Below are positions 21,260 to 21,341 of a stretch of 64,000 nt of DNA, in pieces. Location: NCBI GenBank assembly GCA_031701365.1, contig GCA_031701365.1_4118.1; one strand, written 5' to 3'. The notes under the pieces are model-generated. The model did not search any database. It had not been told where the DNA came from and saw nothing but the letters and a program-made list of their open reading frames with translations. The translations under genes and the position numbers were made by a program. Position 1 is the first letter of the stretch. Every line of letters starts with the position of its first letter. Origin of the DNA: Escherichia coli. Lineage in GTDB: Bacteria; Pseudomonadota; Gammaproteobacteria; Enterobacterales; Enterobacteriaceae.

Positions 21260-21341
21260 CCGGGCGTATCTCAACGGTCTTCTAAACCGTCGTTAATCGA
21301 GTAACTGGAGTATGCAGGTTCGAGTCCTGTCGCCTGGGCCA
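21260..21341 (+). other. aberrant tRNA-like element (Arg-type UCU hairpin, no D-arm)
   Basis: Acceptor CCGGGCG/CGCCTGG, T-arm GCAGG-TTCGAGT-CCTGT, CCA encoded; anticodon-type hairpin ACGGT-CTTCTAA-ACCGT sits only 7 nt after the acceptor. Confidence 0.4.

Follow-up and report, generated by a model that had tools for sequence, protein, structure and literature searches.

The 82-nt element that follows a tRNA-Ser(UGA) gene in the 64,000-nt stretch of DNA analysed here (the window) is, in our estimate with a probability of about 0.65, a functional tRNA-Arg(UCU) with a rewired D-arm, which would read AGA codons and belong to a widespread family of phage tRNAs. From comparison of the homologous sequences, we are much more confident that the RNA is structured and conserved and that it contains a helix, P2, formed by one strand before and one strand after the anticodon arm. 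The family is large, conserved and apparently undescribed.

Results

An element without a D hairpin behind tRNA-Ser(UGA)

The window derives from a jumbo coliphage of the 121Q/PBECO4 type (Asteriusvirus), and the region shares 98.7% identity with the jumbo myovirus Escherichia phage 121Q. The element is separated by 4 nt from the upstream tRNA-Ser(UGA) gene (Table 1) and reads, in order, CCGGGCG UAUCUCA ACGGU CUUCUAA ACCGU CGUUAAUCGAGUAACUGGAGUAU GCAGG UUCGAGU CCUGU CGCCUGG G CCA. Re-reading of the sequence bore out the parts that had been described in an earlier note on this DNA. These are a 7-bp acceptor stem (CCGGGCG/CGCCUGG, including a G3.U70 wobble), a hairpin with a 5-bp stem and the loop CUUCUAA that presents the anticodon UCU, a T-arm with a 5-bp stem (GCAGG/CCUGU) and the loop UUCGAGU, and the discriminator G73 with an encoded CCA. 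The hairpin is preceded by 7 nt and followed by 23 nt. The acceptor stem of 7 bp, the T-stem of 5 bp with a UUCRANY loop, the anticodon stem of 5 bp and the 7-nt anticodon loop with U33 and a purine at position 37 are all those expected of a tRNA. In contrast, there is no D-arm hairpin of 3–4 bp with a loop of 8–11 nt at positions 9–26, where only 7 nt are available. Failing the cloverleaf definition at the D hairpin, the element is best classed as a structural variant of tRNA-Arg and not as a standard tRNA.

Programs for tRNA detection reflect this departure. ARAGORN made no call for the element in the window. Rfam model RF00005 matched 21260-21338 with 32.6 bits, above its gathering score of 29, only in a short (351-nt) search, and a scan of the whole window at the gathering threshold did not detect the element. 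The RF00005 alignment sets 4 nt of the element against the 15-nt D-arm and places a 20-nt insertion in the variable region, and no other family of Rfam 15 matches. The covariance model thus leaves the D-arm nearly empty and reveals no conventional cloverleaf that the earlier note might have missed; its statement that this is not a standard cloverleaf tRNA-Arg stands. A covariance model built from the homologues described below gives the element 99.9 bits (E = 1e-24), well beyond a chance resemblance, and the rest of the window at most 27 bits. Folded as a single sequence, the element is about as stable as shuffled sequences (z = −0.61).

The promoter-like site upstream of tRNA-Ser, recognised by its consensus match alone, has 10 of 12 consensus matches and an extended −10. 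Similar promoter-like sites lie ahead of the tRNA-Gly (20316-20344) and tRNA-Ser(GCU) (22942-22970) genes. The tRNA-Ser and the rewired tRNA-Arg probably share one transcript from the 21126-21155 site, from which RNase P and 3′ trimming would free the RNA down to its encoded CCA.

Table 1. Coordinates in the window of the element, its parts and its upstream neighbours; element position n corresponds to window position 21259 + n
Feature	Position	Strand	Remarks
Promoter-like site TTGGGA / GGGACA ... TG-TATAAT	21126..21155	+	ends 11 nt before tRNA-Ser
Canonical tRNA-Ser(UGA)	21166..21255	+	ARAGORN; Rfam 61.7 bits
Whole element	21260..21341	+	proposed rewired-D-arm tRNA-Arg(UCU), 82 nt
Acceptor 5′ strand, positions 1-7	21260..21266	+	pairs with 21331-21337; 99.2% of cells paired (51 sequences); 7/7 pairs double-changed
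Connector U8 A9 U10	21267..21269	+	U8 and A9 in 51/51; U10 in 51/51 and 132/136; U10 opposite U43
P2 5′ strand C11 U12 C13, with A14	21270..21273	+	proposed roles of D-stem 23-25 and position 26; A14 opposite C39
Anticodon arm ACGGU/ACCGU, loop CUUCUAA	21274..21290	+	anticodon 21281-21283; five stem pairs covary
Linker/bulge C32-C39 (C-R/U-U-U-A-A-N-N), 8 nt	21291..21298	+	C32, U34, A36 and A37 (nearly) invariant
P2 3′ strand G40 A41 G42	21299..21301	+	proposed role of D-stem positions 10-12; covariation
D-loop-like junction U43 A44 A45 C46 U47 G48 G49 A50 G51 U52 A53 U54	21302..21313	+	
T-arm GCAGG/CCUGU, loop UUCGAGU	21314..21330	+	98.8% paired
Acceptor 3′ strand 21331-21337, discriminator G 21338, CCA 21339-21341	21331..21341	+	

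Helix P2 is defined by covariation

In a first alignment of eight phage groups, positions 11-13 read CGC in the Streptomyces phage and CUC elsewhere, and positions 40-42 read GCG and GAG, respectively. Among 136 distinct sequences, filtered for pairing of the acceptor and the anticodon stem only, C11-N12-N13 is paired with N40-N41-G42 in 136/136, with 12 helix types and no broken pair; P2 is likewise paired in every cell of a 51-sequence set. Pair 12:41 is UA in 31, GC in 13 and AU in 7 of the 51 sequences (UA 81, GC 34, AU 18 and CG 3 among the 136), and pair 13:40 is CG in 43, GC in 5 and UA in 3 of the 51. The pairing of 12:41 in 100% of the sequences compares with 48% in shuffles (maximum 62%, 2000 shuffles). 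The segments flanking the anticodon hairpin had been called unpaired-looking in the earlier note; this is right in part, C11-C13 being paired with G40-G42 by covariation. Between P2 and the anticodon stem, positions 14:39 are A.C in 75 of the 136 sequences, C.A in 29, Watson-Crick or G.U in 30 and otherwise combined in 2, a pattern that fits a constrained non-canonical layer between the two helices.

Taken over the 51 sequences, the model with four helices has 94.6% of its cells paired, against 65% in shuffled sequences and 33–47% in slid controls. Double changes are found in 17 of 21 pairs and all helices covary. Other partners for these segments were rejected. When C11-C13 is paired with the second GAG (G49-G51) instead of the first, the proportion of sequences that form the middle pair falls from 100% to 60%. 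Neither a local hairpin GUUA/UAAC nor a variable arm of the tRNA-Ser type shows covariation or keeps its closing pair; the core columns of GUUA/UAAC (34-36 and 43-45) are invariant, and columns 40-42 covary with 11-13 instead. The long variable region with its own stem-loop that characterises a type II tRNA (Ser, Leu, Tyr or Sec) is therefore not present. The nearest-neighbour energy is −20.3 kcal/mol with P2 and −21.4 kcal/mol without it, RNAalifold did not predict P2, and thermodynamic folding as the sole guide was discarded since it did not recover the helix. It is covariation, therefore, and not folding energy that carries P2.

Conservation is higher in the junctions than in the stems. Nearly invariant are G7, U8, A9, U10 and C11, then C32, U34, A36 and A37, and finally the run G42-U-A-A-n-U-G-G-A-G-U-A-U-G55, which is invariant even in copies retrieved with a pattern that does not specify it. 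Its rare variants are U47 changed to C or absent, and A50 changed to C once (locus L145). The three nucleotides that precede the T-stem, UAU, are also the last ones in the variable loop of a canonical tRNA-Arg of the T5-like type. A rarer subclass (L083, L176 and L177) has a linker of 3–4 nt and UGGAAUGAU in the junction. The existence of this short-linker subclass indicates that the wiring, and not the bulge, is the constant feature of the family.

A proposed D-stem supplied from both sides of the anticodon arm

These data can be accommodated if the D-stem is present and its two strands are supplied from either side of the anticodon arm. U10-C13 would lead through A14 into the anticodon stem, as D-stem positions 22-25 lead through 26 to 27 in a normal tRNA, and G40-U43 followed by A-A-n-U-G-G-A would correspond to positions 10-13 followed by A14, R15, G18, G19 and A20. 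P2 encloses the anticodon arm and could stack on it, forming one long interrupted hairpin in which the 8-nt linker is a bulge; P2, the 14:39 layer and the anticodon stem would add up to roughly as many layers as are found in the D-stem, position 26 and the anticodon stem of a normal tRNA. From the D-loop-like segment the chain would continue into the T-stem and not back into the D-stem. We infer that the junction U43-U54 supplies the equivalents of A14, R15, G18, G19 and A20 and, in addition, that of U48 or of the variable loop's 3′ end. The 12-nt segment UAAnUGGAGUAU would thus stand in for the D-loop, with the GG (G48-G49) contacting the T-loop at the elbow. A50, directly after the GG, would by its position be the A20 that is read by bacterial ArgRS; A20 is the main determinant for the E. 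coli enzyme. The L-shape would be kept with an unchanged 7/5 stack of acceptor and T-arm and a different order of strands, which looks geometrically plausible. The word "rearranged", used of the element in the earlier note, is apt for this architecture.

The family is widespread in phages

A sensitive blastn search of GenBank phage records with a 90-nt query matched 685 records, and in 244 of these the match spans at least 80% of the query length. The carriers include Felixounavirus (in Felix O1 the copy lies at AF320576 25951-26032), Asteriusvirus, Vequintavirinae, Klebsiella Mydovirus, the Klebsiella T5-like phages Sugarland and Riker, and the Salmonella jumbo phage 7t3; Streptomyces Karimacvirus (Stanimal) is matched over 73% of the query. 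Identity to the copy in the window is 84–90% outside the genus Asteriusvirus. Shorter matches (35 nt, 91%) correspond to the T-arm and the acceptor 3′ strand of canonical T5-like tRNA-Arg genes, and therefore point to descent of the element from tRNA-Arg. Pattern scans found 73 viral contigs and at least 120 metagenome contigs, and the viral and metagenomic contigs yielded more than 100 further distinct copies. Most copies were gathered with a pattern that fixes the D-loop-like columns. For an independent pattern, anchored in the 5′ half, chance hits in AT-rich contigs made up most of the matches listed; it also recovered real copies, which gave the same picture.

One genome from each of 185,579 species of bacteria and archaea was scanned, with 19 pattern matches, 15 by chance and 4 real. 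All four real copies are on contigs of 6–41 kb in metagenome-assembled genomes, and no element was found in isolate genomes or on large chromosomal contigs of this set. A bacterial homologue was therefore rejected, and the family appears confined to phages among the genomes scanned.

Annotation of the copies is inconsistent. The GenBank labels conflict, with tRNA-Leu(taa) in 121Q, tRNA-TERM in 7t3 and tRNA-OTHER in Riker and Nernie; elsewhere the element is a tRNA feature without product name or part of an ORF, and most records hold nothing. In the freely accessible literature, which included a review of non-canonical tRNAs and to which the search was confined, we found no account of this architecture.

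The conflicting labels and the silence of ARAGORN would be expected of a decaying pseudogene, or of a local rearrangement in which a canonical tRNA-Arg lost its D-arm and was partly converted from the adjacent tRNA-Ser. The earlier note had favoured a pseudogene or local duplication of this kind, and the near-identity on which it drew is real: over the 21 nt from CAACGGUCUU to AAACCGUCG, 19/21 positions are the same as in the anticodon arm of tRNA-Ser(UGA). However, this match is confined to the 121Q clade. At about 40 other carrier loci the stems of the local tRNA-Ser differ from the hairpin of the element, and ACGGU/ACCGU is the commonest hairpin in the family. The element was thus not derived from this tRNA-Ser, and an origin by duplication or conversion was rejected. 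Furthermore, a pseudogene should lack conservation across lineages and carry uncompensated breaks in its helices, and the contrary was found. The same 82-nt architecture occurs in hundreds of phages that infect different bacterial phyla, with 84–100% identity across unrelated phage families, compensatory changes in each of the four helices and invariant junction nucleotides among varied homologues. Nor are the homologues a recent contaminant or one unvarying mobile fragment. True degenerate copies look different, as does a truncated copy at one locus (L118). We regard decay or local rearrangement as highly improbable.

In 7t3, Riker and Felix O1, an ORF that starts 9–16 nt after the element encodes an HNH endonuclease. 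HNH homologues, some with only 31–70% amino-acid identity, lie behind the element on the same strand in 21/189 flanks. The copy in the window has no HNH neighbour.

Conserved nucleotides resemble those of arginine tRNAs

The arginine identity set of bacteria comprises A/G73, A20, C35 and U/G36 (PMC9976931). Among the 136 sequences, the anticodon is UCU in 127, CCU in 5, UCG in 2 and ACG in 2, with no others, so that C35 is present in 136/136 and position 36 is U or G; in the short-linker subclass the anticodons are UCU, CCU and ACG. The discriminator is G in 76 and A in 52 (a purine in 128/136). An A directly follows the GG in every member examined except L145, which has C, its equivalence to A20 being positional. 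CCA is encoded in 89/136 copies and missing in about 35%, which counts against a functional tRNA. The anticodons and identity nucleotides are consistent with an RNA that host ArgRS would charge with arginine and that would decode AGA, a codon common in this AT-rich phage; in the long ORFs of the window (33% GC), AGA makes up 24% of the arginine codons.

The tRNA gene content of the carriers points in the same direction. At carrier loci with large tRNA arrays, ARAGORN often finds a canonical tRNA-Arg(ACG) and almost never a canonical tRNA-Arg(UCU). One contig of actinophage type has canonical tRNAs with the anticodons GCG, UCG and CCU, and the element as UCU. Two loci (L045 and L078) have both a canonical tRNA-Arg(UCU) and the element, which are therefore not strictly exclusive. 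In the Felix O1 genome paper (2010), Arg[AGA] was reported as over-represented, and a tRNA that "might have been expected" was not found; the tRNAscan-SE table of that paper has nothing between Ile (25509-25584) and Leu (26975-27052), and the Felix O1 copy of the element falls inside this gap.

We also considered whether the RNA might carry something other than arginine and thereby recode AGA; the candidates were serine, in view of the long variable region, and alanine, in view of G3.U70. The 23 nt after the anticodon arm superficially resemble a type II variable region and start with CG as in tRNA-Ser, and G3.U70 is present in the copies of the window, Felix O1 and Riker. For serine, however, covariation puts part of the 23-nt region into P2 and not into a variable-arm hairpin. 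Alanine identity through G3.U70 was rejected: pair 3:70 (columns 3:76) is G.U in 7/51 sequences and GC, CG, UA or AU in the others, and the canonical tRNA-Arg of phage slurp01 has the same G3.U70 pair. The arginine determinants are conserved, and we consider either form of mischarging very unlikely.

The slot is shared with a canonical tRNA-Arg(UCU)

In about ten further Asteriusvirus genomes, including slurp01 and G17, the flanks match well and the overall identity is only 81–83%. Slurp01 and G17 have an ordinary 77-nt tRNA-Arg(UCU), accepted by ARAGORN, exactly in the slot of the element; these two were inspected directly, and several other Asteriusvirus genomes were assessed by their tRNA-Arg annotation. 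The flanks of the slot are conserved, with tRNA-Ser upstream and the sequence from the discriminator and CCA onward downstream. Comparison with related phages, a check that the earlier note had proposed, thus revealed a canonical tRNA-Arg(UCU) in place of the element. Judged from these sequences, the tRNA between the conserved flanks is exchanged as a cassette in Asteriusvirus. Among the Ounavirinae, the tRNA list of Sf14 has a canonical Arg_TCT immediately behind Ile_GAT, where Felix O1 carries the element.

This exchange bears on another reading, that of a tRNA-like RNA that does not decode. Such an RNA could be a decoy or sponge for a nuclease of tRNA-Arg or for a tRNA-binding defence protein, or a regulator of ArgRS or of a modification enzyme; as a decoy it would retain the tRNA shape and the anticodon loop only as bait. 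A specific protein partner would fit the strict conservation of an odd architecture, with "unpaired" segments conserved above the stems. The two loci that keep the element beside a canonical tRNA-Arg(UCU) speak for the same view, and phages are reported to use tRNAs against defence systems that target tRNA. However, in its slot the element replaces the canonical gene and is not added to it, its anticodons vary only within arginine, nucleotides matching the whole ArgRS identity set are retained (A20 by its position), the acceptor and T-arm have the standard 7/5 geometry with CCA, and another AGA decoder is usually absent from the carriers. No E. coli nuclease that defends against phages by attacking tRNA-Arg(UCU) specifically is known to us, which also counts against a decoy. 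We therefore judge a decoy or regulator unlikely. The earlier note's "tRNA-like regulatory RNA" is less likely than a decoding tRNA, given anticodons restricted to arginine, the identity nucleotides and the exchange of slots.

Comparison with known tRNAs and tRNA-like RNAs

In function, the closest relative of the proposed rewired tRNA would be canonical tRNA-Arg(UCU), a group that includes E. coli argU. The canonical tRNA-Arg(UCU) of slurp01 and G17 and of T5-like phages has the same CUUCUAA loop, a 7-bp acceptor, a 5-bp T-stem with a UUCGARU loop, a purine discriminator and CCA, the same genomic slot and the same presumed decoding of AGA; the acceptor and T-arm of the T5-like tRNA-Arg (CGGGGUG.../GCAGG UUCGAAU CCUGU) are nearly identical to those of the element. 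Unlike the canonical tRNA, the element has no D hairpin, its D-stem equivalent being split around the anticodon arm. Its D-loop-like sequence sits between P2 and the T-stem, at the usual place of the variable loop, and it has in addition a conserved bulge of 8 nt (3–4 nt in the rarer subclass).

In secondary-structure topology, the closest relative is the D-armless tRNA-Ser(AGY/UCU) of metazoan mitochondria. There, too, the connector pairs with nucleotides 3′ of the anticodon arm and makes the anticodon helix longer. The extended anticodon stem of mitochondrial tRNA-Ser is a feature of the de Bruijn-Klug model. The anticodon also reads AGR, by coincidence. Both RNAs lack the D hairpin and have a three-helix junction with a short 5′ connector (PMC7609411). 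The mitochondrial forms, however, are flexible molecules with degenerate T-loops, in which the elbow contacts between GG and T-loop are missing (PMC7609411), whereas the phage family has a canonical T-loop and an invariant GG-containing mimic of the D-loop, resides in the bacterial cytoplasm and has features of arginine and not of serine tRNAs. The element thus shares the loss of the hairpin with the mitochondrial type and differs from it in retaining elbow nucleotides, through the UGGA segment and P2.

An engineered tRNA without D hairpin, "mini HisT", is charged and used by E. coli, whose HisRS, EF-Tu and ribosome accept it (PMC11551756). It is artificial, results from plain deletion of the D-arm and needs a pnp mutation for stability; the phage family, in contrast, is natural and keeps substitutes for the D-stem and the D-loop.

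The circularly permuted tRNA genes of Cyanidioschyzon merolae have a non-canonical order of segments, and processing restores a normal cloverleaf. In the phage element the ends are normal, and it is the internal connectivity of the mature RNA that would differ. The tRNA-like structures of plant RNA viruses are also viral RNAs that attain a tRNA-like shape by non-standard connectivity and can be aminoacylated. They are 3′-terminal parts of genomes, with pseudoknotted acceptor arms and without a decoding role, whereas the element is a gene of its own within a tRNA cluster, and both its acceptor stem and its anticodon loop are normal.

Discussion

A free-standing homing endonuclease next to a rearranged tRNA-Arg allele that may resist cleavage could account for the horizontal spread of the element as well as for its replacement of canonical genes in their slots. 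We put forward only tentatively, as a doubtful proposal, that a rewired L-shaped tRNA works in bacterial translation and has spread among unrelated phages as a protected allele. At the DNA level, the neighbouring HNH enzyme would cut canonical tRNA-Arg genes, making a mobile cassette of resistant allele plus endonuclease. At the RNA level, the protection would instead be from a nuclease or toxin directed against the core of the normal tRNA-Arg. By either route, canonical tRNA-Arg(UCU) genes would give way to the rewired allele, slot by slot.

According to a 2024 paper, all known bacterial tRNAs are cloverleaves (PMC11551756). If the element is charged and decodes, it would be a natural counter-example to this rule in bacterial cells. 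ArgRS, RNase P, EF-Tu and the ribosome would then accept rewired D-stem strands, and what matters would be the L-shape and not the connectivity of the cloverleaf. The element would also explain the "missing" AGA tRNA of Felix O1. Hundreds of phage genomes, including those of therapeutic and typing phages like Felix O1, would have a tRNA-Arg that is unannotated or misannotated, and its misannotation as Leu, TERM, OTHER or part of an ORF distorts analyses of tRNA content versus codon usage. The fold could, in addition, be a starting scaffold for orthogonal tRNAs.

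The tRNA-Ser(UGA) anticodon stem and the tRNA-Arg allele

The tRNA-Ser(UGA) gene, which precedes the rewired tRNA-Arg(UCU) (the D hairpin being replaced by the helix P2), differs between the two Asteriusvirus clades in its anticodon stem, ACGGU/ACCGU in the window versus CUUGU/ACAAG in slurp01, and is identical outside this stem. The stem version co-segregates with the tRNA-Arg allele in these clades. At the sequence level, this linked change looks as if markers flanking the tRNA-Arg cassette had been co-converted in patches from the cassette donor. Coordinates are collected in the table.

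Features of the tRNA cluster and of related loci
Feature	Location	Remark
sigma-70-like promoter matches	window 20316-20344, 21126-21155, 22942-22970	sequence match
tRNA-Gly(UCC)	window 20357-20429	ARAGORN
tRNA-Ser(UGA) anticodon-arm region	window 21196-21213	compared with slurp01 (L002) and G17 (L003)
tRNA-Ser(GCU)	window 22977-23066	counterpart of G17 tRNA-Ser(ACU)
tRNA-Ser(ACU), G17	L003 3140-3231	annotation and ARAGORN
Canonical and rewired tRNA-Arg(UCU)	L045 1522-1692	minus strand
Canonical and rewired tRNA-Arg(UCU)	L078 1862-1943 and 4106-4178	
Second UCU copy of the element	L059 13348-13429	55.5 bits
Degenerate element	L118, about 6147-6177	minus strand
HNH endonuclease gene	L006 (7t3) 2601-3119; L005 (Klebsiella Riker) 2592-3101; L004 (Felix O1) 2596-2943	outside the window

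Organization of the tRNA cluster

Upstream of every tRNA group in the window lies a separate sigma-70-like promoter match, whose end is 6-12 nt from the first tRNA, and small ORFs of about 54 aa are scattered between the groups. The Rfam scan of the whole window at gathering threshold recovered five of the six ARAGORN tRNAs; tRNA-Gly(UCC) was not among its hits. At corresponding positions, G17 carries a tRNA-Met of 90 nt versus 79 nt in the window, and an annotated and ARAGORN-called tRNA-Ser(ACU) in place of tRNA-Ser(GCU); a serine tRNA with A34 would be unusual. Among the megablast hits to the Asteriusvirus tRNA region, one record bears an organism name starting with 'Listeria' and may be mislabelled.

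Related loci and the HNH endonuclease gene

Divergent or degenerate relatives of the rewired tRNA-Arg are found in two loci. The second UCU copy of L059 has a weak P2 and the junction UUGGAUAGAAC, and a rewired CCU copy lies 268 nt upstream, with a small ORF in between; L118 keeps the 5′ half of the element alone, after which the sequence breaks off. Two viral contigs contain both the canonical and the rewired tRNA-Arg(UCU), as an adjacent tandem in L045. These contigs may represent stages in the replacement of one allele by the other, or else a sign that the two forms are incompletely redundant.

Of the 189 flanks examined, 21 encode an HNH endonuclease homologue 3′ of the element and in the same orientation, some of these proteins sharing as little as 31-70% amino-acid identity. 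Only 9-16 nt separate the rewired tRNA-Arg from the start of the HNH gene in 7t3, Klebsiella Riker and Felix O1, three phages that are unrelated to one another. The tRNA and the endonuclease gene may together constitute a homing cassette through which the allele is spread.
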